The translations under genes and the position numbers were made by a program. The notes beneath the pieces were generated by a model, which saw nothing but the letters and a program-made list of their open reading frames with translations, was not told where the DNA came from and did not search any database. From Verrucomicrobiota bacterium (GTDB lineage: Bacteria; Verrucomicrobiota; Verrucomicrobiia; Limisphaerales; UBA11358), in the NCBI GenBank assembly GCA_049516255.1, contig JBEKTH010000010.1, positions 8,865 to 72,864 on the forward strand: a stretch of 64,000 nucleotides of DNA, in the 5' to 3' direction. Below, in pieces: positions 33,491-64,000 of this stretch; the first letter of the stretch is position 1; the number at the start of each line of letters is the position of its first letter.

Positions 33491-33546
33491 CGTTCGATTC
33501 GATTCCGTGCCGGGTCGAGGCCCGGCGCTCCGGAATTTCAGCGCGC

Positions 33547-33579
33547 TCGTCAATCGTCAATCGTAAATCAAAAATTCCC
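33547..33579. repeat. Heptamer-repeat leader (TCGTCAATCGTCAATCGTAAATCAAAAAT) directly upstream of the large transglutaminase gene
   Basis: Contains the 17-mer AATCGTAAATCAAAAAT (33559-33575), identical to 27482-27498. Confidence 0.6.
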
Positions 33580-40596: not shown

Positions 40597-40665
40597 TCCG
40601 GTTCCGGAAGATTTTTGCAATTTTTGCTCGCCGAGCCGGCGGGTTTTCGCATTGATAGCGCGCGC

Positions 40666-46899: not shown

Positions 46900-48003
46900 T
46901 CAATTCAACTTCGGCGGTTCCCACTTCATCCCATGCGCCTCGGCGACGGCTTGGTGGGCCACTTTCCCGTTCATCACGTTGATGCCGCTGCCAAGCCCCG
47001 GATGCAGCCGGCACGCTTCAGCCAGTCCGTGGTCCGCGAGTGCTTCGATGTAACGATACGTCACGTTGGTGAGCGCCTGGGTGGCGGTGCGGGCGTAGGC
47101 GCCGGGCATGTTTGTCACGCAATAGTGCGTCACGCCTTCCTCGACAAAGACCGGATCGTGATGCGTCGTCGGGCGCGAGGTTTCGGCGCAGCCGCCCTGA
47201 TCAATTGCAATGTCCACGAACACGCTGCCCGGCCTCATACAACGGAGCATTTTCCGGGTAATCAACCGGGGCGCGCGAGCACCAGGCACGAGCACTGCGC
47301 CGATGAGCAGGTCCACTTCCGGCAACAGTTCGTGCAAATGCATCTCATTTGAATACAACGTGTGCGCGGTGTGCAGCGTGATGTCGAGAAATCGCATCCG
47401 TTCGAGGTCCACTTCCAGAATCGTCACGTCTGCGCCGAGACCCTGGCCCATTCGCGCGGCGTTGATGCCGGAAGCGCCGCCGCCCAGCACCACGATCTTG
47501 CCCGGCAATACTCCCGGCACGCCGCCCAGCAGCACGCCGCTGCCACCAAAGTGTTTCGCCAGAAAATAACCGCCTACCAGCACGGACATTCGGCCCGCAA
47601 TTTCGCTCATGGGTTCGAGCAGGGGCAACCGGCGGTTGACCTCGACGGTTTCGTACGCGAGCGCGGTGACCCCGGACCGCATCAGAGCTTCGGTGAGCGG
47701 TTGGCTGGCCGCCAGATGCAGGTACGTAAAAAGGATTTGTCCTGGCCGCAATAAATTGAATTCGGATGGCAACGGTTCCTTGACCTTCACGATCAAGTCC
47801 GCTTTGGCAAACACCGCGGCGTGCGCGTCCACCAGCCGGGCGCCGGCACGTTCGTACTCGGTATCGGGAAAACCTGCGCCCGTGCCCGCACCACGTTCGA
47901 CGACCACCTCATGGCCGCGTTTAACGAGCTGATACACACCGGAGGGCGTCAATGCTACGCGAAACTCTTGCTCTTTGATTTCCTTGAGAAGGCCGATGAT
48001 CAT
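46900..48003 (-). CDS. ald: Alanine dehydrogenase
   Basis: MIIGLLKEIKEQEFRVALTPSGV..., Rossmann VVLGGGASGINAA, and full-length similarity in character to Ald/PNT-alpha-type proteins. 367 aa. Confidence 0.9.
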   Translation of the reverse strand: MIIGLLKEIKEQEFRVALTPSGVYQLVKRGHEVVVERGAGTGAGFPDTEYERAGARLVDAHAAVFAKADLIVKVKEPLPSEFNLLRPGQILFTYLHLAASQPLTEALMRSGVTALAYETVEVNRRLPLLEPMSEIAGRMSVLVGGYFLAKHFGGSGVLLGGVPGVLPGKIVVLGGGASGINAARMGQGLGADVTILEVDLERMRFLDITLHTAHTLYSNEMHLHELLPEVDLLIGAVLVPGARAPRLITRKMLRCMRPGSVFVDIAIDQGGCAETSRPTTHHDPVFVEEGVTHYCVTNMPGAYARTATQALTNVTYRYIEALADHGLAEACRLHPGLGSGINVMNGKVAHQAVAEAHGMKWEPPKLN

Positions 48004-49659: not shown

Positions 49660-49678
49660 CAAAATTACCTCTCAGAAC

Positions 49679-49820
49679 AATCGTAGGAGCCGACGTAAGG
49701 AGGCTCGTTATTTCCGATTTCCGATATACGATTGACGCGCGGCCGGGATGGAAGTGGACTCGTAAATCGTAAATCGCATATCGTAAATCGAATCGGAGCC
49801 TCGTCACCTCGGCTGCTACA
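49679..49820. repeat. MITE-like interspersed element, copy 1 (~140 bp, imperfect ~25-bp terminal inverted repeats)
   Basis: TIRs are GTAGGAGCCGACGTAAGGAGGCTCG and the reverse complement of CGGAGCCTCGTCACCTCGGCTGCTAC (20/25 match by eye). The interior carries CGATATACGATTGACGCGCG and CGTAAATCGTAAATCG. It aligns end to end with the reverse complement of 57812-57947. Confidence 0.7.
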
Positions 49821-49833
49821 AAAGGACAGGCTT

Positions 49834-50565
49834 TCATAAAATCCCGCCGTCGACTTTGAGCGTGGAGCCGGTGATGTAGCTGGCCTCGGCGCTCGCCAGA
49901 AAACGGACGGTGGCCGCCACTTCCTCGGGCCGGCCGAATCGCCGCATGGGAACGCGCATCTGTGCCGCCTTGCGTTCCTCCTCCGCCAGATGGGCCAGCG
50001 CCTCGGTTTCCACGTAACCGGGACAGACGGCGTTCACGGTGATGCCGATGCGCGCCACTTCCTTGGCCAGCGACTGGGTCAACGCGACCACACCCGCCTT
50101 GGCGGCGGCGTAATTGGTCTGCCCGGCCGGTGCCAGCAGCGCGCTCAAGGATGACAGATTCACAATCCGGCCGGCGCGCTGGCTGATCATCGTCGGCAAC
50201 ACGGCCTGGCAGCCGTGAAAAACGCCGTCGAGGTTGGTCGCCAGGACGCGGTCCCACGAATCCGGCGGCATGGTGGCCAACAGGGCATCTTCGTGACTGC
50301 CCGCATTGTTGACCAGGACATCAATCCGGTTGTGCCGGGCCAGGATTTCCTTGGCCGCCTGTTTCCAGGATTCGGGAGCGGTAACGTCCAGGGTGAGGCA
50401 AAAACAGCGGCCAGGATTTTCCTCGGCCAGTTGGTCGGCGTGTTCGCGCCGGGTGCGGACGCCGAGCCAGACGACATTGTCGGGCGACTCGTGGAGGAAG
50501 GCACGCGCGCTGGCCTGGCCCAAACCGCCGTTGGCTCCCGTAATCAGAATGACCCGCAAGCTCAT
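49834..50565 (-). CDS. fabG: 3-oxoacyl-ACP reductase (SDR, FabG-like)
   Basis: ORF 49834..51066 trimmed to ATG 50565 (ATGA overlap with the CLF stop). Motifs ITGANGGLGQA, NNAG, and catalytic YAAAK in NYAAAKAG. 243 aa. Confidence 0.85.
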   Translation of the reverse strand: MSLRVILITGANGGLGQASARAFLHESPDNVVWLGVRTRREHADQLAEENPGRCFCLTLDVTAPESWKQAAKEILARHNRIDVLVNNAGSHEDALLATMPPDSWDRVLATNLDGVFHGCQAVLPTMISQRAGRIVNLSSLSALLAPAGQTNYAAAKAGVVALTQSLAKEVARIGITVNAVCPGYVETEALAHLAEEERKAAQMRVPMRRFGRPEEVAATVRFLASAEASYITGSTLKVDGGIL

Positions 50566-51710
50566 GGCCGAATGTTGCCCGGCGACCAGCCGGGGGACAA
50601 ATGAGAAATGGCGGAATCGGTACGCACAAACCTCGCACCCATCGCCTGCTGATTGGAGCCGACCAGACTGACGTTGGCGGTGGTGAACCGTCCGCCGGCC
50701 ACCGCATCGCACGCGGTCACGCATTGCCAGGCGGCGGCGGCCATCAATCCTTCGCCCAAAATGCGTTTCGGACTGATCCGCGGGCCGGTCCAATCCCGCC
50801 AGGCATTGAGTTCGGCTACGTCCGTGCGCGGGCCGTTCCCGACGCCGTCGCAGAGCAGTTCCACATCTACCGGGAGCGCCGGCATCCTGCCGGCGATTTT
50901 TTTGTTTTGCTCCGATGCGGGCCGGCAAGATGCCGGCGCTCCCAGCTTTTCCAGTTGGCTGCGCATGGCGCGGGCGGCTTGCGCCCGGGTCTTTTGGGCG
51001 GAGTAGGTATGCGCGTCGGTGACGGCGGCCAATTCGACACCGATTGAAGGTTCCGGTTCCCGGCACAAACAGATGGCCCCGGCGCCCGCGGTGAGGACGG
51101 CGGGGCGTTCAAGGTGCCAAAGCGCGTCCGCGAGTATCCAGTTGGTTTCTTCAGCGCCGATGACGAGGCATGCGTCCACGCGCTTTTCCTCCAGCCATTG
51201 GGCGCCCAGGGATATTCCCTGGAGAAAAGCAGCCGGATCGCCCACCATGGAGCTGGCCAGTGAAATGTTTCCCAGTACCGCCGCAAGATGGCTGGCGGGC
51301 GCGGCGTAGACAGTTTCGGGAAACAGGAGCGGACTCGCGGTGGCCGGGTCTTTCAATGTCTCCTCGTAAAAACGGCAGGAATAATTCACACAGCCGGATT
51401 GCAGGCAGACCACCAGGCCCAGACGCAACCCGGGATCGCGGTCCGCCCGCCATTGGGCCATGGCTTCGAGTGCGGATGCCACAACATAGTGCGTGATGGG
51501 ACTCGCGCGTCGCAGACGCGGATGCGCCAGAAATTCGGGGCGCGACGTGGGATTGGGCACCAAACGCGCCCGGAGCGGTTTCTCCCAACCGGGCCGTTCC
51601 AGCGATTGAACGGGAAGGGGTTCGCCCTGGGCCAGCGCCGCGCGCAGGGCGGCGACATTCCAGCCGGCGGGCGAGACCGCGCCCAATCCGGCAACGAAAA
51701 TCCGGCTCAT
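50562..51710 (-). CDS. Beta-ketoacyl synthase-like protein lacking the active-site Cys (chain-length-factor-type partner)
   Basis: ORF trimmed to ATG 51710 (ATGA overlap with the KS stop). Thiolase-fold KS-like N-terminus (IFVAGLGAVSPAGW). Where KS enzymes have the ACxS Cys, it reads SLASSMVGDPAAF. It carries a 24-aa in-frame palindromic insertion. Confidence 0.7.
   Translation of the reverse strand: MSRIFVAGLGAVSPAGWNVAALRAALAQGEPLPVQSLERPGWEKPLRARLVPNPTSRPEFLAHPRLRRASPITHYVVASALEAMAQWRADRDPGLRLGLVVCLQSGCVNYSCRFYEETLKDPATASPLLFPETVYAAPASHLAAVLGNISLASSMVGDPAAFLQGISLGAQWLEEKRVDACLVIGAEETNWILADALWHLERPAVLTAGAGAICLCREPEPSIGVELAAVTDAHTYSAQKTRAQAARAMRSQLEKLGAPASCRPASEQNKKIAGRMPALPVDVELLCDGVGNGPRTDVAELNAWRDWTGPRISPKRILGEGLMAAAAWQCVTACDAVAGGRFTTANVSLVGSNQQAMGARFVRTDSAISHLSPGWSPGNIRP
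50872..50943. repeat. GC-rich palindromic repeat inserted in frame inside the CLF-like CDS
   Basis: Arms GGGAGCGCCGGCATCCTGCCGGC (50872-50894) and GCCGGCAAGATGCCGGCGCTCCC (50921-50943) are complementary with 1 mismatch. The loop is T-rich. 72 nt = 24 codons (GAPASCRPASEQNKKIAGRMPALP). Same arms as the 59525-59602 hairpin. Confidence 0.7.
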
Positions 51711-52948
51711 GTCCACCTCCGCAAAACCAGGCTCGCATTGACGCCGCCAAAACCGAACGAGTTGGACAAGACGACATGCACCCGTGCGTCCCGGGGTTGG
51801 TGGACGATGGGAAAGTTGCAAGCCGGGTCGGGAGTTTCAAACAGCGTTTCCGGCGGCAGCCATTGTTCGCGCAGGGTCATCAGGCAGACCACGGCTTCGA
51901 CGGCACCCGCGGCGCCCAGGAGATGCCCAATGCCGGCTTTGGTCGAACTGACCGGCAGGGTTGCGGCGCGCTGGCCCGCCCAATGGCCGATGGCGACTGC
52001 TTCCGAGCTGTCATTGAGCACCGTGCCCGTGCCATGCGCATTGATATAATCAACATCCTCAGGTGCGACCCCGGCCGTGGTACAGGCTTGTTTCATGACC
52101 GTCAGCGTCGTGTCACCCTGCGGCTGCGGCTGGGTGAGGTGATGCTGGTCAATGGCCGTGCCGTAGCCGATGAGTTCTCCCAGAATGGGAACGCCCCGCC
52201 GGCGCGCTCTTTCCAGCGTTTCCAGCGCGACCACGGCCGCGCCTTCACCCAGTGCCAGACCATCACGCCGGGCATCGAACGGACGGCAGATGGTGGTCGA
52301 GAGCGCCTGCAAGGCGTCAAAACCTGAAAACACAAGTTCCGTAAGCGCGTCATAACCGCCGGCCAGGGCGCGTTCAGCCTGGCCGCAGCGAATCAGTTCC
52401 CAGGCATGGCCGACGGCATTGCTGCCGGAGGCGCAGGCATTTGAGACAATGGTGACCGGCCCGTTGGAACCGAGCGCCTCAAGGACCGTTCGCGCCTGGA
52501 CCTGGGGTTGATAGTGGACGGCCCGGGTGGATTGATGGTGATGCCGGCGCGGCGTTTGCACCGCCTGACGAAAATACGCTTCGCCAAATGACATGCCGCC
52601 CGCGGTGGTGCCCAAAACGAACGGCAGATTTTCCATGGGTTCCCAGCCGGACTGCTGCCACGCTTCATGGGTGGCCAGCAGCAACAGGGAAGCGGCACGG
52701 TCGAACCGGGCAGTTTGTTTCGCGCTGAGCCGGGTCGGCGGCAGGGTCGCCGGCAAATCAACTTCCGCCGCGTTCTTCGCCCGCTGACGTCGAACATCGA
52801 AGTGTGACACAGGGCGGAATGCTGGGCGTCCGGCGCGAAAACCTTCCGCGTTGGGTTTCCAGCCCAGACCCAGAGCCGTGACGATTCCCGCGCCGGTGAT
52901 GACCACGCGCGGCGGCGCTTGGGGCGGAGACGTGGTCGGGAAGAGCAT
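51707..52948 (-). CDS. Beta-ketoacyl-ACP synthase (KAS I/II-type, catalytically complete)
   Basis: Active-site Cys in VSNACASGSNA, His motifs NAHGTGT and GHLLGAAG, C-terminal SNSFGFGGVNASLVL. Confidence 0.88.
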   Translation of the reverse strand: MLFPTTSPPQAPPRVVITGAGIVTALGLGWKPNAEGFRAGRPAFRPVSHFDVRRQRAKNAAEVDLPATLPPTRLSAKQTARFDRAASLLLLATHEAWQQSGWEPMENLPFVLGTTAGGMSFGEAYFRQAVQTPRRHHHQSTRAVHYQPQVQARTVLEALGSNGPVTIVSNACASGSNAVGHAWELIRCGQAERALAGGYDALTELVFSGFDALQALSTTICRPFDARRDGLALGEGAAVVALETLERARRRGVPILGELIGYGTAIDQHHLTQPQPQGDTTLTVMKQACTTAGVAPEDVDYINAHGTGTVLNDSSEAVAIGHWAGQRAATLPVSSTKAGIGHLLGAAGAVEAVVCLMTLREQWLPPETLFETPDPACNFPIVHQPRDARVHVVLSNSFGFGGVNASLVLRRWT

Positions 52949-53172: not shown

Positions 53173-53919
53173 ATGTTTGTAGCGAAGACATGCGCGGCGG
53201 TGATTCCCTGTTTCAACGAGGCGGGGACGATAGCGCCCCTGGTCACGGCCGTACGCCAACATCTCCCGCTTGTCCTGGTGGTGGACGACGGTTCCACCGA
53301 TGGCACGCCTGCCCTGGCCAGCGGTGCCGGTGCGATGTTGGCCCGTCACCATCAAAATCTCGGCAAGGGCGCCGCGCTCAGAACCGGACTGTCGCTGGTC
53401 TTGAAACAAGGATTTGAATGGGCTTTGACCCTGGATGGTGACGGCCAGCATGCGCCCGGCGATTTGCCGTCATTGCTTCAATACGCCGGGCAGACCGGGG
53501 CATCGCTGGTCATCGGGAGCCGCATGCATAATGCGCGGGCCATACCCTGGCTGCGCCGGCAGGTGAATTGGTGGATGAGCCGGAAACTGTCGCACCTGGC
53601 CGGGCGATCCCTCCCGGACACGCAATGCGGTTTACGGCTCATCCACCTGGCAACCTGGGCGGCCTTGCCGCTCCAGACGGAACGCTTCGAGGTTGAATCC
53701 GAAACCCTGATGGCCTTCCTTGCGGCAGGACAGCGGGTCGAGTTCGTCCCGATCCAGGTCATTCGCAGTGGTCGCCGGAGCCGCATTCGTCCGGTGGCCG
53801 ACACGTTGCGCTGGTGGAAATGGTGGCGGAATTTCCGCCGGCCCACCACGGGCGAGCCGGCAGGTTCAGGGCTCCAGACATCCCCGCCGGCCGCAATCCC
53901 GATGGAAATGCACCATTAA
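53173..53919 (+). CDS. Glycosyltransferase family 2 (short, ~248 aa)
   Basis: AAVIPCFNEAGTIAPLV, LVVDDGSTDGT, LDGDGQH (DxD-type). Confidence 0.8.
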   Translation: MFVAKTCAAVIPCFNEAGTIAPLVTAVRQHLPLVLVVDDGSTDGTPALASGAGAMLARHHQNLGKGAALRTGLSLVLKQGFEWALTLDGDGQHAPGDLPSLLQYAGQTGASLVIGSRMHNARAIPWLRRQVNWWMSRKLSHLAGRSLPDTQCGLRLIHLATWAALPLQTERFEVESETLMAFLAAGQRVEFVPIQVIRSGRRSRIRPVADTLRWWKWWRNFRRPTTGEPAGSGLQTSPPAAIPMEMHH

Positions 53920-53944: not shown

Positions 53945-54874
53945 TTACTTGGTGGGATTATAGACGTACTTGCCGCTGGTGTCGATGTACCCGAATTTTC
54001 CGCCCGCTTTGACCTGCGCCAGGCCGTCAACAAAGGAATCGGCTTCGTCGAACTGCGGGTTGATCGCAAATTTCCCGGTGGCATCAATGTATCCCCAGTG
54101 TTTCCCCTGCCGGACCGGCGCCAGATCCCCTGAAAAAGCGCCAGCGTCGTCAAACTGCGGATTGATTGCAAATTTTCCGGTGGGGTCGATATAACCCCAA
54201 TGTTTTCCCTGCCGGACCGGTGCCAAGCCATTGCCGAAGCGTCCGATCTCATCGAACTGGGAATTGATGGTCATCTTCCCGGCCTTGTCAACGAACCCCC
54301 ATTTGCCGCCCGCCCGGATTCCCGCGAGCCCTTCGGAAAAAGGCAGCGCCCTTTCAAACTGCGGGTTGATGACAATGATTCCGGTTTTATCAACAAAACC
54401 CCAATGGCCGCCCATCCGGACGGGCGCGAGCCCTTGGGAAAACGTTCCGGCATCTTCAAACTGCGGATTGATGACCAACTTGCCATCCGTATTGATGAAG
54501 CCGTAACGACCGCCACCACCGACGTGATAGAAAGGTCTCGGATCGTATGGAACAAATGGGTCGCCGCCGCCGCCGCCGAGCCTGACCGCCGCCAGCCCTT
54601 CGCTGAAAACGTCGGCCTTGTCGAACTGCGGAACGACCGCGATCTTCCCCGAACTGTCCACGTAACCCCACCGGCCCATGCGCACCGGAGCCAGGCCCTC
54701 CGCAAAAACCTCCGCCCGATCGAACTGCGGATTGATTACGGTTTCGCCGGATTTATTCACAAACCCCCAGCGGCCATTGACGACCACCGGATAAAGAGTT
54801 GTCGCGGCTGTGCCAATGGAGGCTGTACTCAACGTTGCCAGGGTAAACAACAGGTAGAACCAGTTTTTATTCAT
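53945..54874 (-). CDS. Secreted WG-repeat (KWG-type) protein, ~8 tandem ~35-aa repeats
   Basis: Signal peptide MNKNWFYLLFTLATLSTASIGTA. Repeated unit: WG(F/Y)(V/I)D..GK..INPQFD.A..FSEGLAPVR.G. Confidence 0.8.
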   Translation of the reverse strand: MNKNWFYLLFTLATLSTASIGTAATTLYPVVVNGRWGFVNKSGETVINPQFDRAEVFAEGLAPVRMGRWGYVDSSGKIAVVPQFDKADVFSEGLAAVRLGGGGGDPFVPYDPRPFYHVGGGGRYGFINTDGKLVINPQFEDAGTFSQGLAPVRMGGHWGFVDKTGIIVINPQFERALPFSEGLAGIRAGGKWGFVDKAGKMTINSQFDEIGRFGNGLAPVRQGKHWGYIDPTGKFAINPQFDDAGAFSGDLAPVRQGKHWGYIDATGKFAINPQFDEADSFVDGLAQVKAGGKFGYIDTSGKYVYNPTK

Positions 54875-55117: not shown

Positions 55118-56362
55118 ATGAGGAATTCAATCCAGACGGTGGGCATCATCGGCAGCGGCCCGGCGGGGGCAACGCTGGCCTCGCTGCTCACGATGAAGGG
55201 GGTGGACGTGACGCTGTTCGACGACGGCCGCCGGCCCGACCTGATTGTGGGGGAATCGCTCATTCCGGCGATCGTGCCGGTGCTGCGGAAATTGGGCGTG
55301 GAGGAGCGCGCCGCGGCGGTTTGCCAGCACAAGCCGGGCGTCAGCTTTACATTTAATCCGGATGAACAGGTTGACTTTACCTTTCAATCGCTCGCCGGCT
55401 CGCCCATGCCGACGTATGCCTATAACGCGCCGCGTCCGGCCTTTGACCGGTTGCTGGACGAACGCGCCGATGAGCTGGGCGTGAAACGCGTGCGTAGGCG
55501 AGCAAAGGTCGAACGGAAGGATGGAGACGGATTGCGGCTGGCGGAGGAGACACTCTCGCAAGCTACGTGGCTTAACGGCCGGCAGCCGGATTTGCTTGTG
55601 GATTCCACGGGACGCAGCCGGCTCTTCGCGCGCACGCTGGAAATTCCCGCGGAAGTCGGCCCGCGCAGGGACGTGGCCTATTTTGCCCACTATGAAGGCT
55701 TCGCCGAGCAATCGCCGCGCGGTCAGGTGATCATTGGCCGGCTGGCCAACGGCTGGTGCTGGCGCATCCCGTTGCGCAACCGGCTTTCCGTCGGCGTGGT
55801 CATGAACAAGGATGATGCCGCGCAATTTGGAACTGGCCCCGAGGAACGGCTCGAAGGGGTCATCAACCATGACCCCCTGCTTGCCGCCGCCGGCCGGGAC
55901 CGTCGCCGCCTCACGGAAGTGGTCACTTATACCAACTACCAACTGGTCTCCCGGCGCGGCCATGGGCCGGGCTGGGTGATGACAGGCGACGCCCTGGGTT
56001 TTGTGGACCCCATGCTGTCGCCGGGCATGTGGCTGGCGCTGCGTTCCGCGGAATTACTCGTCGAACATCTGGATAATCTGCCGGTCTATTCGCGCGAAAT
56101 GCGCAAGCTCATCAAGGCTTGGATGGGGTTCATCGAATATTTTTACGATGGCCGCATTTTTGCGATGTACAAGACCGGCATGTTCTTCGAGCGGAAATTT
56201 CCCGGTAAAATCGCCGCGACGATGCATAACTTTTTCAACCGCAAAATCGCCTGCATGGCCGCGGGAGCAACCACCACCTCGCGGTTTGGGCATGGCATGT
56301 TGCAAATCATGTCGCGTCCCGCCGCCTGGAAAACCGATCCCGCCCTGCTCGCCATCCGCTGA
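55118..56362 (+). CDS. Flavin-dependent halogenase-like FAD oxidoreductase
   Basis: GxGxxG (VGIIGSGPAGA), a GESLIP motif (compare GEATIP of tryptophan halogenases), and WxWxIP as GWCWRIPL at nt 55754-55771. Confidence 0.65.
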   Translation: MRNSIQTVGIIGSGPAGATLASLLTMKGVDVTLFDDGRRPDLIVGESLIPAIVPVLRKLGVEERAAAVCQHKPGVSFTFNPDEQVDFTFQSLAGSPMPTYAYNAPRPAFDRLLDERADELGVKRVRRRAKVERKDGDGLRLAEETLSQATWLNGRQPDLLVDSTGRSRLFARTLEIPAEVGPRRDVAYFAHYEGFAEQSPRGQVIIGRLANGWCWRIPLRNRLSVGVVMNKDDAAQFGTGPEERLEGVINHDPLLAAAGRDRRRLTEVVTYTNYQLVSRRGHGPGWVMTGDALGFVDPMLSPGMWLALRSAELLVEHLDNLPVYSREMRKLIKAWMGFIEYFYDGRIFAMYKTGMFFERKFPGKIAATMHNFFNRKIACMAAGATTTSRFGHGMLQIMSRPAAWKTDPALLAIR

Positions 56363-56506
56363 CGTTTCCGACCGCGACGGTGTCCTTCGCGAATAATTAG
56401 GTTTTCGATTGGTTGGTTCCGGTCAGGCCCGGTGACGGGCGGGCCCCCATGGCAGGGCAAGTTCAGGCTTGCCAGGGAAATGACAGTTGGCGTAAAGAAA
56501 GGGCAG

Positions 56507-57787
56507 ATGCTTTACGATGCTTGGCAGAAGGTGGTTCAGGACCGGGGCGATGAGGTGGCGTTGCGCGATCTGGCTTCCGGACGGAGTTGGACCTTTGCGC
56601 AATTGGACCGCGAATCCGAAACCCGCCTGCCCGGTGCCCCGGCGATGGTTTTCCCGAAGGGTCATGCCCCCGAATTTATTATTGCCGTGCTGCGGGCCTG
56701 GCGTTGGGGGGCGGTGGTGTGTCCCCTCGAAGCCCACCATCAACCGCTGGCGGTTCTCCCTCCGCCGTCGCCATGTTGTCATCTCAAAACCACGCCGGCC
56801 ACCCGGGGTGTGCCGCGGGCGGTCGCGTTTACCGCCGAACAACTGGCCGCCGATGCCAAAAACATTGTGGCCACCATGGGCTTGCGTCCCGACTGGCCCA
56901 ATCTGGGCGTGATTTCCATGGCCTATTCCTATGGATTTTCAAATCTCGTCCTGCCGTTGCTGCTCCACGGCATCCCGCTTTTCCTGGCGCCGGCGCCGTT
57001 GCCGGAAATCCTGCGGGGCGCGGCCAAGGCCCATTGGAACCTGACCGTGGCCGGCGTGCCGGCGCTCTGGCACGCGTGGCATAAGGCCGGCGTGATCCTC
57101 AGCAACGTCCGGCTGGCCATCTCGGCCGGGGCGACGCTGCCCTTGACCCTGGAGCAGGCGGTCTTCGCTGAACACGGCGTCAAAATCCACAATTTCTACG
57201 GCTCCACCGAATGCGGCGGCATTGCCTACGACGCGACGGAAACGCCGCGGACGGACGAAACCGCCGTCGGCCGGCCGATGAAAAATGTCAAAGTAACCGT
57301 CAATCGCCGCGGCGCGCTGGTGGTCCGGGGCCGGGCGGTGGGCAAGACCTATTGGCCGGCACCGGAAGCCACGCTGGGCCGGGGCGTTTTCCAAACCTGC
57401 GATCTTGCTGAAATCATGGACGGCGCGGTTTGTCTGCGCGGCCGCACTGGTGACCACATCAATGTGGCTGGAAGAAAAGTATGCCCGGACATCATTGAGC
57501 AGGCGTTGCGGGAACATGAGGCGGTTGACGAGTGTCTCGTCTTTGGCGTCCCCAGCGGGAACGCGGACCGGGTGGATCACATTGTGGCCTGCGTCACGTC
57601 GGACCGTCACGGCCTCAAGGAAGAATTAAAACAATTCCTGCTCCAAAAGCTGCCCAGCTGGCAGGTGCCGCGCGAATGGTGGTTTGTGGGGTCGATTGAG
57701 GTCAACGGACACGGCCGGGAAATGGCGCGCGCGCAATGGCGGAAGGATTTTCTCGAAAATCGCGCGAAGCCGGACGTCAAGGTCTGA
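56507..57787 (+). CDS. Divergent short AMP-dependent adenylating enzyme (acyl/aryl-CoA or -ACP ligase family)
   Basis: The ORF starts at 56432; ATG 56507 (MLYDAWQ...) is preferred and ATG 56480 is also possible. Motifs FYGSTECGG, CDLAEIMDGAVCLRGRTGDHINVAGRKVCPDIIE. The P-loop is degenerate (TTPATRGVPRAV). Confidence 0.65.
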   Translation: MLYDAWQKVVQDRGDEVALRDLASGRSWTFAQLDRESETRLPGAPAMVFPKGHAPEFIIAVLRAWRWGAVVCPLEAHHQPLAVLPPPSPCCHLKTTPATRGVPRAVAFTAEQLAADAKNIVATMGLRPDWPNLGVISMAYSYGFSNLVLPLLLHGIPLFLAPAPLPEILRGAAKAHWNLTVAGVPALWHAWHKAGVILSNVRLAISAGATLPLTLEQAVFAEHGVKIHNFYGSTECGGIAYDATETPRTDETAVGRPMKNVKVTVNRRGALVVRGRAVGKTYWPAPEATLGRGVFQTCDLAEIMDGAVCLRGRTGDHINVAGRKVCPDIIEQALREHEAVDECLVFGVPSGNADRVDHIVACVTSDRHGLKEELKQFLLQKLPSWQVPREWWFVGSIEVNGHGREMARAQWRKDFLENRAKPDVKV

Positions 57788-57811
57788 CAACCCGTTTCCA
57801 AACTCACTTCC

Positions 57812-57947
57812 TGGTAGCCGCCGAGGGAACGAGGCTTCGATTCAATTTTCGAATTTACGATTTACGAGTCCACTTCCAACCCAACGCGCGTCAATCGTAT
57901 ATCGTAAATCGAAAATAATGAGTCTTCTTGCGTCGGCTCCTGCGATT
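57812..57947. repeat. MITE-like interspersed element, copy 2 (inverted relative to copy 1)
   Basis: The reverse complement aligns along its whole length with 49679-49820, matching at roughly four fifths of positions by eye with one short indel. It lies between two convergent adenylating-enzyme genes. Confidence 0.7.
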
Positions 57948-57960
57948 TTTCCGGTACGCT

Positions 57961-59430
57961 TTAAACCTGATTTATGACCGGCTGGGATGACCCCGAGCCG
58001 TGCCGGACCTTGCCGCTGGAGGTCATGCTGATTTCAGCGACGAATTCGAGCGAGGTCGGCACCTTGTGGCTCGAAAGCTGGCGGCGGCAGAAGGCCAGAA
58101 TGTCCTCGCTCGGGTTCGGGGAACTGCCATTGCGCAGTTGCACCTCGGCGCAAACCGCCTCGCCAAATTGCGGATGCGGGCGGGAAAACACCCGGGAACG
58201 CACCACCGCCGGATGTTGGTCCAGTACGCCGGCGATTTCCTCCGGAAAAACCTTGTGCCCGGCGATTTGGATCACGGAGGAAGTCCGTCCGTCCAGCACG
58301 ATGCGTCCGCCCCCGTCGCGGTGAGCCAGGTCGCCGGTCAGGAACCAGCCGTCATGCAGCACCTCTGCGCGCGACCGCGGCGGATTCAGGTAACCGGAAA
58401 ACATGCCGGGACCGCGCAGGGCGAGCTGGCCCGTTTCCCCTTCGGGCAATGGCTTCATCGTTTCGTCCACGATCATCGCTTCAAAACCGGGCACTGGCCG
58501 GCCAATGGCCTCGGGGTGTTCCGCTGCTTCGGCAACGTTCATGATGGGCAGGCCCACTTCGATGATGCCAAAACCCTGGGACACCGGGACGTGAAACCGC
58601 GCTTGAAAATCCCGTGCCGCCTGCGGGTCGAGGCGGCTGGAAACCGACATGACCCGCGACAACGACGGCGGCAGGGCGCGACCTGATTTTTCACTGGTCA
58701 ACATTCGGATGTGCATCGGCGTCACGTAAAGAAAAGTGGCCTGATGTTTCGCGGCCGCGTCCAGGATGTTCTCGGCCAGATAATCCGTGTTGACGATCAC
58801 CGTGGCGCCAACCTCAAGGTAAAGAATGATGGAGACGTAAAAGTGATAGGCCATCGGCAACACCCAAAGGATTTTGTCCTCGGAGGTCAGGCCCAGTCCG
58901 GCATTGGCGGCCCGGGTGCGTTCCAGCACGTCTTGATGCGTCAGGACCACGCCCTTGGACTGGCCGGTGGTTCCGGAAGTGAACCGCACGAACGCGGCGT
59001 CCGTGATTCCTGGCGCGAGCGGCGGTGGTGTGCCGCCGAGCCGCGTGAAACGCAAACCGTTGCCGCCCGGATTCTCCAGGGTGACGGTCTGGCCGGGCTG
59101 GGCCGGACCGGAACCGTCGTCAAGAATCACACACAAAGGCGCGCGCGCCAGCATGTCCGCCATTTCGGCCGGCTTCATCTGGTGATGAATGGGCATGATG
59201 ACCGCGCCGCAACCCAGCGCCGCCAGCGCGCCGATGACAAAGGCGCGGCCGTTGCGCGCCCGCACGCCGACGCCCTGTCCCTCGCTTACGCCCAGCCGGT
59301 CAAGCTGGATGCGCAACGCTTCGACTTCGTGCCAGAGTGACCGGTAATCCAGCGAACCGCCGGCATCAATAATGGCGATACGGTCGGGCCATTGGCGGGC
59401 GGATTGGGCAAGCGTCTCAAAAACGTTCAT
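57961..59430 (-). CDS. AMP-dependent synthetase/ligase (fatty-acyl or aryl adenylating enzyme)
   Basis: FTSGTTGQSKGVVLTH, GFGIIE, GWFLTGDLAHRDGGGRIVLDGR, SGKVRH. Confidence 0.85.
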   Translation of the reverse strand: MNVFETLAQSARQWPDRIAIIDAGGSLDYRSLWHEVEALRIQLDRLGVSEGQGVGVRARNGRAFVIGALAALGCGAVIMPIHHQMKPAEMADMLARAPLCVILDDGSGPAQPGQTVTLENPGGNGLRFTRLGGTPPPLAPGITDAAFVRFTSGTTGQSKGVVLTHQDVLERTRAANAGLGLTSEDKILWVLPMAYHFYVSIILYLEVGATVIVNTDYLAENILDAAAKHQATFLYVTPMHIRMLTSEKSGRALPPSLSRVMSVSSRLDPQAARDFQARFHVPVSQGFGIIEVGLPIMNVAEAAEHPEAIGRPVPGFEAMIVDETMKPLPEGETGQLALRGPGMFSGYLNPPRSRAEVLHDGWFLTGDLAHRDGGGRIVLDGRTSSVIQIAGHKVFPEEIAGVLDQHPAVVRSRVFSRPHPQFGEAVCAEVQLRNGSSPNPSEDILAFCRRQLSSHKVPTSLEFVAEISMTSSGKVRHGSGSSQPVINQV

Positions 59431-59524
59431 CGGCTAAAATCTATTTTTGCTTTCCAGTTTGGTCAATATCGCCTCAGTTCGCCAGCCTTCATTGGTGCCG
59501 GACAAAATTTTTCAGACAGAGAAT

Positions 59525-59602
59525 CTTACCGGGAGCGCCGGCATCCTGCCGGCGAATCCTTAACCTGAGACACGCCGGCAGGATGCCGGCGCTCCCGGTA
59601 AG
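59525..59602. repeat. Perfect 30-bp inverted repeat (CTTACCGGGAGCGCCGGCATCCTGCCGGCG - 18 nt - reverse complement)
   Basis: Left arm 59525-59554, right arm 59573-59602, no mismatches. It lies between the FAD oxidoreductase stop and the AMP-ligase start on the minus strand. There is no adjacent U-tract. Confidence 0.8.
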
Positions 59603-59621
59603 ACTTGTCCATCGCTCACCT

Positions 59622-60905
59622 TCATTGGTGTAGAGATCGCCGGATGTTGGTTACCGCGTCCTCCAGCGACTGGCCCGAGGCCTGGAAAGCCGCAGCGGTT
59701 CCGGCCGCCCAGCCGGTCGCCAGCGCCGTGCCGATGACGCGGGCCGAGGTCATCGCGCCCGTGGTGGCGGAGAAACAACGTCCCGCCACCCAGACATTAT
59801 CCAGTTCCGCCGGGCGCAAACAGTCGAGGGGAATGTCATAAAAATCGCGCTCGGCGAAATACGTCATTTCGGGTCGCGGACTGCTGGTCCAGCGTTCCAT
59901 CGGCCAGCAACCCCGGGCGATCCCGGATGGAATTTTTCGCGTGTCCAGTACGTCCTGATCCGTCAGCCGGGCACGCCCGAGGATCCGGCGGCCCGACCGG
60001 ACGCCGAGTTGCGGGGCGACGGAGTCGAGACGCGCGTTTCGGCAGGAGGGAATATTTTCAACCAAAAACCGCCGGAGCGGTTCCAGCAGTGCGCGAGCTT
60101 CGCGTTCCCAATCCGTGACCTGTTGCCAAAGCGCGCGGTCGGGGCTGGCGGGCATCAGGCTCAATTTGAAGGCCAGCCGGCCGTTGGCGCCGGACCCGGG
60201 AACGAGTGACAATCGCTCGCAAAGCGTGGGCAACGCTCCGCTTTCGACGGCCCGATGCAGTTCGCGGCGCACTTCGAGCAAGCCGCGCTGGGCCAGGCCC
60301 GGATCCACATGCTCCAGCACGAAAACCAGGGCGGGTGCCTGGTCGGCGCCGCCGTTTTCCGCATTGGCGCCGCCGAGCGAGGCGGCGGTCGCTTCCCCGG
60401 TGCAATCCACCACCGTGGTCGGACGGAACAGCAACGGCTCGTTCCAGGCGAGGGCGCGGATTTGATTCAGTCGGGGACCTTCGGCCTGCGCTTCCGCCAC
60501 CGTGGCGTGTAATATCACGGTGACATTCTTGGATTCGACCACCATGGCGTCGGCGACGCGGGCAAAGGCGGGCGGGGGATAGGGCAACACCCAGAGGCCG
60601 GTGTCCATCACCCGAATGGGCTTCACGTCGGTGGCTTGCTGCAAGCGCGCGGCAAACTCCTGCGCAAATCCGCCGCCAACCGGCGTGGCTTCGGCGTGTG
60701 TTGCGTCCCGCAGATAAAGTCCGCAAATGGTGCCGACCTGCGCGGTGGTGGCCAATCCACCGAGGAATCCGTATCGCTCCAACAAGACCACCCGGGCGCC
60801 GGCGCGCCCGGCTGCGGTCGCCGCCGCCACTCCCGCGGCACCGCCACCGACGATCAGCACGTCGCAGGCAATGGTCGTGCCGCCAGTGCGGACCGCGTTG
60901 CTCAC
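59622..60905 (-). CDS. FAD-dependent oxidoreductase (FAD_oxidored/GIDA-like family)
   Basis: The ORF starts at 60953. GTG 60905 is preferred because it gives a GTGA start/stop overlap with the radical SAM gene, like the ATGA junctions elsewhere in this operon. Dinucleotide fold CDVLIVGGGAAGVAAATAAGRAGARVVLLE...LGGL. Confidence 0.75.
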   Translation of the reverse strand: MSNAVRTGGTTIACDVLIVGGGAAGVAAATAAGRAGARVVLLERYGFLGGLATTAQVGTICGLYLRDATHAEATPVGGGFAQEFAARLQQATDVKPIRVMDTGLWVLPYPPPAFARVADAMVVESKNVTVILHATVAEAQAEGPRLNQIRALAWNEPLLFRPTTVVDCTGEATAASLGGANAENGGADQAPALVFVLEHVDPGLAQRGLLEVRRELHRAVESGALPTLCERLSLVPGSGANGRLAFKLSLMPASPDRALWQQVTDWEREARALLEPLRRFLVENIPSCRNARLDSVAPQLGVRSGRRILGRARLTDQDVLDTRKIPSGIARGCWPMERWTSSPRPEMTYFAERDFYDIPLDCLRPAELDNVWVAGRCFSATTGAMTSARVIGTALATGWAAGTAAAFQASGQSLEDAVTNIRRSLHQ

Positions 60906-62314
60906 GGTAGTCTCCGCCGCATGTGCTCGCCGTAGCCGCGGATGTATTTCCACTGGGGCCGCACGTTCAGCAGCACCGACACTTTTTGTCCCCAGCGGAC
61001 CACGGTCTTACGCCAGTCCGCCGGCGAGGTCCACTCCGCGCGCCGCCGCGTGATCCGATCCAGTTGGTTCTCGGTGTCTTCGGCCAGCCCGGGTGACAGG
61101 TAATAGGCCGGTTCAAAGAGGTCCTGGTCGGGTTTGACCTGGCCTTCCCGCACGGCGATCCGGGCCATGGGCGTGCCTTCATGGACGCGGATGCCGATGG
61201 TGGCAAACACGGCGTTGGCTTCCGCACAACTGTTCAAAAAGCTTTGGGTGTCCTCGACATCCGCCCAGGTTTCGCCGGGACCGCCGAACAGCAGGTAGAC
61301 CGCAATCGGCAGACCGGCGTCATGCGCCGCTTGCATGGCAATCCGGGTTTCCTTCTGCCCAAACGGCTTGTCCAGGGCGACCAGCATTTTGTCCGAGGCC
61401 ACATCCAGTCCGAACTCCACGCCGGCGCAACCGCCTTCCTTCATGGCGTGCGCGAGTTCCGCGTCGAAACCGGTCGGGTTGCAGAAGGCCGACCAGCGGA
61501 CCGGCACCCGCCGTCGCCGGAGTTCGCGGCAAATGGCCAGGGCGTGGCTCCGCGGATCGTTGAAGACGCTGTCCACGAAAAAGAAATGGCGCTGCTTCGA
61601 CCGGACGGCCACGGTTTCGATTTCCTCGACCACGGCTTCCGGTGGGCGGAGCCGGTAGCGGCGTCCCTCCAGTTTGGGATAAATGCAGTAAGCGCATTTG
61701 AACGGGCATCCCCGTTTGGTTTGCACGCCGACAAACCCGCCGCGCCGGGTGTACCGCGGGTAGTTGCAAAACTCGTGGGCCGGTGGCGGCAAGTCGCCCA
61801 ATCGCTCGATGGCCCTTGCGGGGAGAGCGGCGTCGGAGTCATCACTTTTGCCATGGGTGACGACACCTTCAATCCCGTCCAGGGAATGTCCGGATTCCAA
61901 TCGCGCCAGCACTTCCGGAAACGCGCGTTCGCCCTCGCCGATGACACCGCAGTCGGGTTGCAACCGTTGCATCCAGCCTTGTGGGGACACCGAAAAACCG
62001 CTGCCGCCCAGAATCAAGGGTCCTGCGAAATGTTGCCGCACGGTTTCCGCCAGTTCCCGGACATCGTTGAAATAGGAACGGGGGGCAAAAGACCAACAGT
62101 TGTCCAGGTTGCGGATGCCGAAGGCCACGGCCCCGAACTTCTCCCTCGTCAGCGCTTTTTGCAGTGCCTTTTGCGGATTTCGTTCCATTCCCAGGTCCAA
62201 AAACTCGACCTCATGGCCGGCGGCCCGGGCCGCTGCGACCACGCAGAGCGCCCCCAACGGCGCGACGGGATAAGGGGAACTTTCCCGGTTGGTTGCCGCC
62301 AGGAGCACTTTCAT
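60902..62314 (-). CDS. B12-binding-domain radical SAM enzyme
   Basis: N-terminal cobalamin-binding-like Rossmann (MKVLLAATN...PLGALCVVAAA...ILGGSGFS). Radical SAM cluster motif CPFKCAYC (CxxxCxxC) in VQTKRGCPFKCAYCIYP. Confidence 0.85.
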   Translation of the reverse strand: MKVLLAATNRESSPYPVAPLGALCVVAAARAAGHEVEFLDLGMERNPQKALQKALTREKFGAVAFGIRNLDNCWSFAPRSYFNDVRELAETVRQHFAGPLILGGSGFSVSPQGWMQRLQPDCGVIGEGERAFPEVLARLESGHSLDGIEGVVTHGKSDDSDAALPARAIERLGDLPPPAHEFCNYPRYTRRGGFVGVQTKRGCPFKCAYCIYPKLEGRRYRLRPPEAVVEEIETVAVRSKQRHFFFVDSVFNDPRSHALAICRELRRRRVPVRWSAFCNPTGFDAELAHAMKEGGCAGVEFGLDVASDKMLVALDKPFGQKETRIAMQAAHDAGLPIAVYLLFGGPGETWADVEDTQSFLNSCAEANAVFATIGIRVHEGTPMARIAVREGQVKPDQDLFEPAYYLSPGLAEDTENQLDRITRRRAEWTSPADWRKTVVRWGQKVSVLLNVRPQWKYIRGYGEHMRRRLP

Positions 62315-63648
62315 GACAACTCCTCCTCCAGCAAAGCATGGCGCAGGTCCCGTTCCAGCCCGTCCACCTCGGCCGGAGTCAGACAGTCATCCACCCACGA
62401 CAGCAGGGTGGAAAGCCGGTTGCCAAACCTTAAAAACAACACGGTCAGACCGGGCCAACGCCAGCATGGGATCAAGTGGGTGGCATCCAAGATCCGGCCG
62501 CCACAAAATTCCGTCATGCCGGGGCAGATTTCACCCGAATCCGAAAAGCTCAGGGACGCGATCTTGCCGCGGGTCGGTTTTCCCAGATGATGGGCGTAAT
62601 ATCCCAGCGGGAGTGGCTTGAACATTTCCAGCGCCGCCATACAGCATTCGGGGAAGCGGTCGCGAATCTGGTCCATCATTTGCCGGCTGAGTTCGCCAAC
62701 GATGTCGCTAATCCGACCGGCGTGTTGCGGTTCGATGCGATAGAACAGAATGGAGAGATGATTGGAAAAGATGGGGCCTTTCGCCCCATGTCGGCGCGTG
62801 TCATGGGGCACGGGAACCAGATAAGCCCCGTCCCGGTTGCCGCGCTGGACGGCGATGGTATGCAGCGCCCGGATGGAAGCCGCCAGGAAAAAATGACTGC
62901 GCCGGAAACCGGCGGTGAGCTGCTGGCTGCGCGCGTCGATGCGGGCGGTTTCCAGTTCGGTGAACTGCAAGACGCGGCGATGGTTGCGGCGCAGGCCGGA
63001 ACGGGCTCCGGGTGGCACCAGGCTGAAGAGCGGTTCCTTGCCGGATTCGTGCAGCCACTTCACCGAGCCGTGCGCCTGTTTGGCATTGGACCACCAGCTC
63101 GTTCCCCGGCGCTCCATTTGTATGGGACTGATAAAGTCCTTGACGCTCGGCGCTCCATTCGTGGCGCCGTTCGCGTTCAAATGGCTCAATAAAAAGTCGA
63201 GCCCCCGCGCATCCAGCAGGGTGTGGTTCCAGGAAAGATAAAGATGACTGCTGCCATCCGCGTGGCGCACCACGTCAAACGTTACGCCCGGCCCGTGTTC
63301 GGCCCGCAATTCGCGTTCCGTGACCACCTTGGGCAGCGTCCACGCGGTCTCCCCGCTGCCATTTTGATCGTGGTGTTCGAAAAAGATGGTTTTGGGTATT
63401 GACGTTGTCCGCCAGACCGGCGGCAACAGCGGCAGCCAGCGGACGAAGCGCGCGCGCGCCAGCCAGTCCATGATCGGCGATTCGGCAATGCGCCGGCGCA
63501 GCCGGTCGGCCTCAAAGCCCTGGTCGAGCTGGAAGACGGCGCAGCAGACATTGCCCGGCAACCCGAACCGCCGCATCCGGTGGTCCTGGCCGTGCATGAA
63601 ATAATCTCCGGCAGCCGATCGAATCTGACGAGGCAGGTGGTCAGGCAT
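62311..63648 (-). CDS. Condensation/CAT-superfamily-like acyltransferase (HxxxD motif), otherwise uncharacterised
   Basis: ORF 62311..63792 trimmed to ATG 63648, 20 nt after the ACP stop. ATGA overlap with the radical SAM start. LYLSWNHTLLDARG contains an HxxxD motif resembling HHxxxDG of C-domain/WS-DGAT/PapA5 acyltransferases. The family call is tentative. Confidence 0.45.
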   Translation of the reverse strand: MPDHLPRQIRSAAGDYFMHGQDHRMRRFGLPGNVCCAVFQLDQGFEADRLRRRIAESPIMDWLARARFVRWLPLLPPVWRTTSIPKTIFFEHHDQNGSGETAWTLPKVVTERELRAEHGPGVTFDVVRHADGSSHLYLSWNHTLLDARGLDFLLSHLNANGATNGAPSVKDFISPIQMERRGTSWWSNAKQAHGSVKWLHESGKEPLFSLVPPGARSGLRRNHRRVLQFTELETARIDARSQQLTAGFRRSHFFLAASIRALHTIAVQRGNRDGAYLVPVPHDTRRHGAKGPIFSNHLSILFYRIEPQHAGRISDIVGELSRQMMDQIRDRFPECCMAALEMFKPLPLGYYAHHLGKPTRGKIASLSFSDSGEICPGMTEFCGGRILDATHLIPCWRWPGLTVLFLRFGNRLSTLLSWVDDCLTPAEVDGLERDLRHALLEEELS

Positions 63649-63668
63649 AAGCACGGCCACTCCGGCGC

Positions 63669-63944
63669 TCAGGCGGTAGAGTGGTTGTTGCGGGACAGCT
63701 CGGCGATGCAATTGGCCAGCGTGGCCATCGAGGTCAGATTGTTGCCCGTCAGGTGCGAATCCGGCACCCGGACGCCGATGACGCGTTCGCAAAAGAGCAG
63801 CAGTTCCACCAGCGCAAACGAATCAATGCCGGCCTGGGCCAGCGGGCTGTTTTCGTCAAAATCCGTTCCTTCGGCGACGAAATTGGTTCGCGCAAACTGA
63901 CAAAGCTGCGCGGCGACAGTCTTGGGGTCCTTCTCTGAGGTCAT
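63669..63944 (-). CDS. Acyl carrier protein
   Basis: ORF trimmed to ATG 63944, giving 91 aa. Phosphopantetheine-attachment motif AGIDSFALVELL (DS-hydrophobic). Confidence 0.8.
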   Translation of the reverse strand: MTSEKDPKTVAAQLCQFARTNFVAEGTDFDENSPLAQAGIDSFALVELLLFCERVIGVRVPDSHLTGNNLTSMATLANCIAELSRNNHSTA

Positions 63945-64000
63945 TGCTTGTTTTAGGTCTGCGACGAAATGTCGGTCATTGCGGCGCAACCACGGGGTGT

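Follow-up and report, generated by a model that had tools for sequence, protein, structure and literature searches.

The window analyzed here (64,000 nucleotides of contig JBEKTH010000010.1, assembly GCA_049516255.1), from a Limisphaerales-type Verrucomicrobium of soil or peat, contains four consecutive minus-strand genes that encode an acyl carrier protein (ACP), a condensation-like (C-like) protein with an HxxxD motif, a B12-binding radical S-adenosylmethionine (rSAM) enzyme, and a flavin-containing oxidoreductase (PF12831). Comparison with related loci revealed that the ACP, C-like protein, and flavoprotein form a constant core, usually together with an adenylating enzyme (AMP-ligase), while the rSAM gene, which encodes an accessory tailoring enzyme, looks like a dispensable insertion of ancient origin separating the C-like and flavoprotein genes. 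We propose with moderate confidence that the four genes are the center of a carrier-dependent acyl tailoring-and-transfer module, similar to a dissociated adenylation-thiolation-condensation (A-T-C) system, in a lipid cluster of the aryl-polyene/'ladderane' type. The module is real, widely conserved, and uncharacterized. It is not categorically new: the superfamily of each protein was already known, and this class of biosynthetic gene cluster (BGC) is flagged by annotation tools. An initial annotation of the window had regarded the same genes as a translationally coupled unit for the stoichiometric co-production of a carrier protein, a radical enzyme acting on the carrier-bound substrate, and a releasing or transferring acyltransferase; this interpretation was partly supported, and the lipid cluster around the genes had gone unrecognized in it.

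Conservation of the module and loss of the rSAM gene

Related loci were collected by a GTDB scan with a 20-sequence family alignment (80 loci out of 157 relatives, mapped by tblastn) and by look-ups of seven distant homologues with 39-24% identity. The gene order ACP-C-like-(rSAM)-flavoprotein-(AMP-ligase) was found in approximately 90 loci, down to 24% identity, and the complete order, including both genes in parentheses, throughout Limisphaerales and in a Planctomycetota metagenome-assembled genome (MAG; locus L083, 41% identity). The sources of the distant homologues (41-24% identity) were this Planctomycetota MAG, a MAG of Nitrospirae, and unassigned contigs from metagenomes or MAGs. An ACP gene was located directly upstream in all eight distant loci with upstream sequence, and an AMP-ligase gene often followed that of the flavoprotein. 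The latter adjoined the C-like gene, including in loci without rSAM, wherever the sequence reached far enough.

The rSAM gene was absent from 15 of the 70 loci with complete C-like and flavoprotein genes, and the gap between these two genes was short in most of them. In a neighbor-joining tree of the C-like protein, the rSAM-less loci were found at five or more separate positions inside rSAM-containing clades, suggesting at least five apparently independent losses. One distant locus (L090) was a minimal operon consisting of genes for an ABC transporter, ACP, C-like protein, flavoprotein, and AMP-ligase, with neither rSAM nor ketosynthase (KS), and in another (L047), the ACP-C-like-flavoprotein trio stood alone among unrelated genes. 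Since the rSAM gene was missing from so many modules and from minimal operons, its product appears to be an accessory enzyme on which the carrier and transferase do not strictly depend as a partner. Therefore, the expected co-occurrence of the four genes across genomes was borne out for the neighbors, which were conserved across phyla, but not for rSAM, which the initial annotation had counted in the unit. The composition of this unit also needs to be revised: the ACP, C-like protein, and flavoprotein were constant, and the AMP-ligase, a usual partner, had been left outside.

Some loci differed in their gene content. The Planctomycetota cluster (L083, 6318-16898) contained several KS genes and four rSAMs (a SPASM-type enzyme, a true member of TIGR04072 (437 bits), the paralogue coupled to the C-like gene, and an HpnR-like B12 type); this cluster, a richer form of the module, could represent the ancestral arrangement. 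In L089 (3382-8933) and L090 (6327-12747), minimal modules without KS genes were located behind an ABC transporter. The rSAM position in L089 was empty, and genes for a membrane fatty-acid desaturase (PF00487), DUF1475, and DUF1295/steroid-reductase-like proteins were found 3' of the flavoprotein gene; this desaturase set might represent alternative, oxygen-dependent tailoring enzymes.

Gene organization and junctions

All of the previously assigned coordinates matched a direct reading of the minus strand (59400-64000) and the table of open reading frames (ORFs), and the 20-nt spacer and the ATGA and GTGA overlaps were confirmed in the same manner (Table 1). The identities assigned to the four genes also held on domain and fold evidence (see below). 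The longer (445-aa) start of the C-like gene was supported by the (near) invariance within the family of D15 and F17, which are located 5' of the alternative start, M18.

Table 1. Features of the window discussed in this study (positions are those of the window)
Feature	Position	Strand	Remarks
ACP gene	63944-63669	minus	ATG at 63944; stop TGA at 63671-63669; 91 aa; strand read directly
Spacer between ACP and C-like genes	63649..63668	minus	20 nt; GGAG Shine-Dalgarno-like motif at ~63664-63661
C-like ('acyltransferase', AT) gene	63648-62311	minus	445 aa; ATG at 63648; putative stand-alone member of condensation-domain superfamily
C-like stop/rSAM start overlap	62314-62311	minus	ATGA
B12-binding rSAM gene	62314-60902	minus	470 aa; PF02310 and PF04055
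rSAM stop/flavoprotein start overlap	60905-60902	minus	GTGA; in-frame GTG starts the flavoprotein, ahead of its GGGAAG motif
FAD-dependent oxidoreductase (PF12831) gene	60905-59622	minus	427 aa; GGGAAG motif at 60848-60831
AMP-ligase 1 (ANL adenylating enzyme)	57961..59430	minus	489 aa; PF00501, 217 bits
AMP-ligase 2	56432-57787	plus
Halogenase-like flavoprotein (Trp_halogenase family)	55118-56362	plus
WG-repeat protein	53945-54874	minus	secreted; 7 PF14903 repeats
GT2	53173-53919	plus
FabF-like KS	51707-52948	minus
Chain length factor (CLF)-like	50562-51710	minus
FabG-like short-chain dehydrogenase/reductase (SDR)	49834-50565	minus
PDH/CrtI-like flavoprotein	48019-49659	minus

Junctions were compared in 89 related loci. 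The C-like and rSAM genes overlapped by 4 nt in 59/70 loci (and by 1 nt in five more), the rSAM and flavoprotein genes overlapped by 4 nt in 48/67 loci (with ATG at the same position in some), and the spacer between the ACP and C-like genes was 17-22 nt in 54/83 loci. Stop and start codons that overlap or lie close together on the same strand, as here, are those of a translationally coupled operon, and coupling itself is predicted. On the other hand, overlaps of 4 nt were also found between the KS and CLF genes, the CLF and SDR genes (ATGA at 50565-50562), and genes for a 161-aa protein and MMPL, and accounted for approximately 4 of the 13 co-directional junctions (about a third) among the gene calls of the cluster. 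Therefore, the start/stop coupling of the four genes is real and kept over deep divergence, but is ordinary; because such overlaps are routine in this cluster, it carries little information on stoichiometric complexes, and by itself is no argument for stoichiometric co-production.

The 3' boundary of the unit was marked by a perfect inverted repeat (59524-59603; 31-nt arms and an 18-nt loop) immediately 3' of the flavoprotein stop, which belongs to a dispersed palindromic family. At the 5' side, beyond the window, was a divergent intergenic region of approximately 230 nt (L003). No cobalamin riboswitch or other Rfam element was detected 5' of the operon, only generic hairpins below the gathering scores, and a scan for promoters and terminators yielded nothing above shuffle expectation, except for one sigma-70-like match 5' of AMP-ligase 1.

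The C-like protein

No match was obtained for the C-like protein in Pfam or NCBIfam (including PF00668 at E<=0.01), and it is named 'hypothetical protein' in NCBI and IMG records. The family is sizeable: with clustering at 50% identity, it comprised 683 clusters at E<=1e-3, of which 148 remained at E<=1e-30. In an alignment of 81 diverse homologues, D15, H142, D146, R285, N296, P347, and G400 were invariant, and the consensus of the motif was WHHxLMDAxG. The corresponding sequence of the window protein was W140-N-H142-T-L-L-D146-A-R-G (encoded at 63231-63202); thus, the first His of HHxxxDG was replaced (N141-H142-T-L-L-D146-A) and the final Gly was not conserved.

When the family profile was used as a query, condensation domains of nonribosomal peptide synthetases (NRPSs) were matched (E=5e-10), with the family motif aligned onto HHxxxDG, as was PDB 8s6l (2e-6), a chain deposited as a PapA5-type phthiocerol dimycocerosyl transferase and titled AzeD. 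PF00668 was matched by 26/81 family members at E<=0.01 (best E, 6.7e-10). In a Foldseek search against PDB, the AlphaFold2 (AF2) model of the window protein (pLDDT 71, pTM 0.72) matched AzeD, SrfA-C, the RzmA starter C domain, CDA-C1, SgcC5, and WS/DGAT (E, 1e-15 to 1e-12; TM, 0.5-0.65), which points to the two-lobed C-domain fold. The C/CAT (chloramphenicol acetyltransferase) fold, previously suggested, was thus recovered by the profile search, structure model, and Foldseek alike, and the protein is assigned on these grounds to the condensation/CAT-like (NRPS C/PapA5) superfamily as a predicted stand-alone member.

Acyl transfer from a carrier thioester is predicted from the genomic association: the ACP gene was upstream in all sampled loci, and one family member (P0144) was an ACP-C-like fusion protein, which supports the direct carrier dependence of the C-like protein. 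PapA5, SgcC5, WS/DGAT, and AzeD share with it the two-lobed CAT/C fold of approximately 430-450 aa and the HHxxxD(G) motif, which the window protein has in the form NHxxxD; PapA5 and SgcC5 act with carrier-tethered acyl groups, and AzeD has the same variant first His. The window protein differs from them in that the similarity was at the profile level only (the best E value being that for the condensation domains), and it belongs to a separate family without a Pfam model, sampled members of which are encoded directly 3' of their own ACP gene.

The B12-binding rSAM enzyme

The rSAM enzyme contained an N-terminal B12-binding domain (PF02310, residues 12-135; 50.6 bits against a cut-off of 32.1) and a radical SAM domain (PF04055; 76.7 bits against 29.5) with the CxxxCxxC motif (C203-x3-C207-x2-C210, encoded at 61708-61685). 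These features are those of the radical SAM superfamily and its class B, respectively, and cobalamin use is predicted; as known for AprD4-type relatives, a B12-binding domain alone is no proof of cobalamin use. TsrM was the closest solved structure (6wte, 2e-36), and the nearest characterized relatives were mostly cobalamin methyltransferases: BzaD, TsrM, PhpK, and HpnR. Among the characterized families in NCBIfam, none reached its cut-off with the window rSAM. The window enzyme resembles class B rSAMs such as TsrM, BzaD, PhpK, HpnR, and CysS in the N-terminal B12 domain and CxxxCxxC core, and differs in its substrate, presumed to be a ketoacyl-type chain on ACP. CysS acts on a thioester-activated substrate.

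The best NCBIfam match was TIGR04072, with a score (357.9 bits) slightly below the cut-off of 360 and an alignment that covered model positions 1-406 of 443. The model, rSAM_ladder_B12, represents an equivalog family described in NCBIfam as 'lipid biosynthesis B12-binding/radical SAM protein'; the NCBI record names the window enzyme just 'radical SAM protein'. The orthologues coupled to the C-like gene in L083, L087, and L088 scored 321-353 bits, whereas second rSAM paralogues in L083 and L088 scored 437-441 bits over the full length. Identity was 48-60% among the C-like-coupled rSAMs and 33-37% between these and the true TIGR04072 paralogues. Judging from these scores and identities, the window rSAM is a sister paralogue of TIGR04072 (the 'ladderane' rSAM) in a separate orthologous group; membership of TIGR04072 was ruled out by the sub-cut-off score and the paralogue analysis. 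Only the C-like-coupled type, and no true TIGR04072 member, was present in the window and its 8-kb upstream extension. Comparisons with anammox bacteria were made via this NCBIfam model and the literature.

Assignment to the housekeeping rSAMs BchE, HpnR, and HpnJ was also rejected (54-85 bits, far below the cut-offs). The prediction that the enzyme lies outside these families was therefore correct: BchE and HpnR scored 54 and 78 bits, respectively, against 358 bits for the uncharacterized TIGR04072.

ACP, flavoprotein, and AMP-ligases

The ACP contained the PP-binding domain (PF00550; 24 bits against a cut-off of 20.8) and a phosphopantetheine attachment site, Ser42, in GIDSF (codon 63821-63819); D41-S42 was invariant in eight module ACPs from diverse loci. 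A second ACP was not found in the approximately 25-kb cluster, and the window ACP was the sole one.

The oxidoreductase clearly belonged to PF12831 (277 bits against a cut-off of 27) and contained the dinucleotide-binding motif G20-G-G-A-A-G25. In single-sequence and profile searches of PDB, only this N-terminal Rossmann motif was matched. Foldseek hits of the structure model (geranylgeranyl reductase, group A monooxygenases, and fumarate reductase) had TM-scores of 0.2-0.35 and were uninformative, and a literature search on PF12831 chemistry found nothing.

AMP-ligase 1 is the usual fifth gene of the module: in most loci, it was located 3' of the flavoprotein gene, and the two genes overlapped by 4 nt in several distant loci. 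Its PDB neighbors were malonyl-CoA synthetase, NRPS A domains, and aryl-AMP ligases, and the top family matches were fatty-acid and malonyl-CoA ligases. The enzyme is the presumed loader of ACP. The gap between the flavoprotein and AMP-ligase 1 genes (59431-59621 in the window) ranged from a 4-nt overlap to approximately 630 nt in most collinear loci, with a common size class of approximately 550-590 nt and outliers up to 7.9 kb. As the spacer length is so variable, the gap appears to be an insertion hot spot.

The surrounding lipid cluster and comparison with known systems

The exact rSAM sequence was found on three long contigs (L001-L003), which run past the end of the window. Beyond the window, the ACP gene was preceded by genes for a small membrane protein (encoded on the opposite strand), a protein with DUF8321/8322, and a HicAB pair; farther 5' (L003) were those for a FabZ/ApeI-like dehydratase, a LolA-like protein (matching NCBIfam LolA2_flexi), and MMPL fused to an LpxL-like acyltransferase. 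Together with the genes in Table 1, the layout, judged by gene content, resembles that of aryl-polyene/flexirubin/'ladderane'-type lipid BGCs: KS/CLF, ketoreductase (KR), dehydratase (DH), ACP, acyltransferase, GT2, LolA, and MMPL occur together. BGCs of the antiSMASH 'ladderane' class have previously been noted without explanation in Verrucomicrobia as well as other phyla (PMC7298704, PMC9902471), and synteny was described earlier for such BGCs (PMC2649909).

Some additional observations were made on this region. The HicA/HicB toxin-antitoxin pair (L003, 6510-6927) sits mid-cluster, between the FabZ-like and DUF8321/8322 genes. The MMPL-LpxL-like fusion was 1172 aa long in two near-identical contigs (L003, 1348-4866), and a 1019-aa protein with MMPL only was called in the third (L002, 1362-4421); the shorter call could be due to a frameshift or an assembly difference. 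A WG-repeat protein was also encoded near the distant module in L089 (9851-12034), which may be a coincidence.

The cluster shares KS/CLF, KR, ApeI/FabZ-like, ACP, AMP-ligase, GT2, LpxL-like, LolA-like, and MMPL proteins with the aryl polyene (Ape), flexirubin, and xanthomonadin systems, and its halogenase-like flavoprotein has a parallel in flexirubin and xanthomonadin clusters. On the other hand, canonical aryl polyene clusters are not known to contain a B12-rSAM, stand-alone C-domain protein, or PF12831 flavoprotein. The putative ladderane cluster of anammox bacteria, Cluster I (KustE3603-3608), is similar in that an ACP, a FabZ-like protein, a KS with an active-site-degenerate (CLF-like) KS, a PDH-like flavoprotein, and a B12-rSAM occur together, and its function is also unproven. 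Differences from Cluster I are that the window rSAM is a sister paralogue of TIGR04072 and is dispensable, that the C-family protein and PF12831 flavoprotein are not among the six products listed (PMC10139942, 10.64898/2026.05.19.726425), and that the window cluster carries aryl-polyene-like export genes.

Proposed function and alternative explanations

From the observed gene identities, folds, motifs, gene order, and junctions, together with the constant core and the dispensability of rSAM, we infer the chemical steps, the substrate, and the acceptor as follows. The adjacent AMP-ligase would adenylate a carboxylic acid and load it on the phosphopantetheine arm of ACP (Ser42). In an optional second step, the cobalamin-type rSAM would modify the ACP-bound chain at an unactivated carbon; C-methylation is the likeliest reaction because the characterized relatives are mostly cobalamin methyltransferases, and such a dispensable decoration fits the repeated losses of the gene. 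In a redox step, the PF12831 flavoprotein may then desaturate, reduce, or oxygenate this chain, which the C-like protein would move from the ACP thioester to an acceptor hydroxyl or amino group using His142 of (H/N)HxxxD. Finally, the LpxL-like acyltransferase-MMPL fusion and LolA-like protein would deliver the product to the envelope.

Several points weigh against this scheme. The C-like family and the PF12831 and rSAM subfamilies are biochemically uncharacterized; the AF2 model of the flavoprotein (built from close homologues) had a pLDDT of 57, which is too poor for classing its chemistry; and the substrate of AMP-ligase was not inferable from its PDB or NCBIfam neighbors. Class B rSAMs also catalyze reactions other than methylation, for example, AprD4, BchE, and the archaeal ring synthases of glycerol dialkyl glycerol tetraethers. 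Since no other ACP was found in the cluster, that of the window may also serve the elongation system of KS/CLF, in which case the C-like protein would off-load the final polyketide-like chain instead of an acid loaded separately. Furthermore, the first His of HHxxxDG is Asn in the clade of the window protein, and the best structural match, AzeD, is a stand-alone C-family dehydratase, not a transferase (bioRxiv 10.64898/2026.07.17.738954).

These last two points lead to an alternative in which the C-like protein is not an acyltransferase, but an AzeD-like dehydratase, epimerase, or cyclase acting on an ACP-bound intermediate, with release achieved, for example, by the LpxL-like acyltransferase, which is already encoded in the cluster. 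AzeD was the top Foldseek match (8s6l; E=6e-15, TM 0.65), and its first motif His is likewise replaced (bioRxiv 10.64898/2026.07.17.738954), in parallel with the NHxxxD of the window protein in place of HHxxxDG. However, the consensus of the C-like family is the canonical WHHxLMDAxG, ordinary C domains and the PapA5-annotated 8s6l were matched about equally by sequence profiles, and TM-scores to AzeD and ordinary C domains were similar (0.5-0.65). Minimal operons such as L090 also encode no other candidate off-loading enzyme. This alternative is unlikely on balance, and the transfer of the acyl chain remains our preferred role for the C-like protein.

The nature of the carried group is the subject of another explanation, a type-II-NRPS-like unit: a peptidyl or aryl carrier would receive an amino or aryl acid from AMP-ligase, the flavoprotein and halogenase-like protein would oxidize and halogenate the loaded group, and the C-like protein would add it as a head group to a polyene or lipid. 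The PDB neighbors of AMP-ligase included NRPS A domains, DhbE, and salicylate-AMP ligase, the NCBIfam matches of ACP included the aryl carrier AsbD, the C-like fold matched NRPS starter C domains, and a flavoprotein of the Trp_halogenase family is encoded in the cluster (55118-56362). Against these similarities, fatty-acid and malonyl-CoA ligases rank highest among the family matches of AMP-ligase, the remainder of the cluster is of the lipid/polyketide type, and the halogenase-like gene was not kept with the module in distant loci, making such a unit rather improbable.

In spite of the routine nature of the junctions, the overlaps could reflect a physical, stoichiometric complex of ACP, the C-like protein, rSAM, and the flavoprotein, as their conservation across deep divergence and the ACP-C-like fusion may indicate. 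We consider this distinctly doubtful: the 4-nt overlap was the commonest junction type throughout the cluster, rSAM was cleanly deletable, and among the 150 best representatives of the C-like family, there were no fusions with rSAM or the flavoprotein.

The remaining explanations concern the rSAM reaction, for which C-methylation is proposed above. There is a slim chance that, in place of simple methylation, the C-like-coupled rSAM could form C-C bonds or otherwise alter the skeleton of a ketoacyl chain tethered to ACP, with the C-like protein and flavoprotein as dedicated partners. A true 'ladderane-type' pathway, in which the B12-rSAM would cyclize or couple C-C bonds on an ACP-bound polyunsaturated chain produced by KS/CLF, FabZ-like, and PDH-like enzymes, as has been proposed for anammox Cluster I, is very improbable: although the window cluster has each of the six types of component known from Cluster I (ACP, FabZ-like, two FabF homologues, PDH-like, and B12-rSAM; PMC10139942; 10.64898/2026.05.19.726425) and TIGR04072 was the best-scoring family, the rSAM is a distinct paralogue below the cut-off of TIGR04072 (L083 and L088 encode true members besides this paralogue, whereas the window and 8-kb extension encode none) and was lost repeatedly while the rest of the module was retained, and ladderanes are known only from anammox bacteria, in which the role of the cluster is itself unproven (PMC10139942, PMC9902471).

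Repeats and other regions of the window

The palindromic repeat at the 3' boundary of the unit (23-31-nt arms; GGGAGCGCCGGCATCCTGCCGGC...) also occurred inside the CLF-like coding sequence (50866-50943). This copy was read through in frame, and an L074 homologue (64% identity) lacked exactly those 23-24 residues ('APASCRPASEQNKKIAGRMPALPV'), such that a REP/RPE-like element seems to have been inserted into the gene in frame. Copies of the palindrome arm were found at other positions in five more Limisphaerales loci. A second repeat of approximately 150 nt, similar to miniature inverted-repeat transposable elements, was common to the gaps at 49655-49840 (between the SDR and PDH-like genes) and 57785-57965 (between the convergent AMP-ligase 2 and AMP-ligase 1 genes); it had terminal inverted repeats and internal GATTTACGA repeats, and the copies were similar over most of their length.

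Features elsewhere in the window include very large ORFs (33346-37119, 1257 aa; 37112-39727, 871 aa) and genes for two proteins of the transglutaminase-like type (39724-41496), a 3-keto-disaccharide hydrolase-like protein, and alanine dehydrogenase (46900-48003). GC content decreased to 0.52-0.53 around 10-12, 20-22, and 24-26 kb.

Significance

The modification of ketoacyl (fatty-acid-type) lipids by radical SAM enzymes has so far been proposed only for ladderanes and the Jaw5 product (2026 review, PMC13459092), and the anammox rSAM has resisted heterologous expression (PMC10139942). The module described here is a separate, tractable, and much more widespread entry point to cobalamin rSAM chemistry in ketoacyl-lipid clusters. 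Some genomes encode it, together with an ABC exporter of its own, as an operon of five or six genes, and natural rSAM-minus variants are available for comparison. In literature searches, no paper was found on the unmodeled C-family protein encoded 3' of its own ACP gene, its constant PF12831 partner, or the optional rSAM paralogue; a sizeable family of the condensation superfamily without a Pfam or NCBIfam model is now defined. Since 'ladderane' BGC calls in Verrucomicrobia rest on a paralogue of the anammox-type rSAM, they need to be interpreted with caution. If the rSAM does perform skeletal chemistry, the module would be a tractable non-anammox model for 'ladderane-type' rSAM clusters, in which the variants with and without rSAM would serve as built-in controls.

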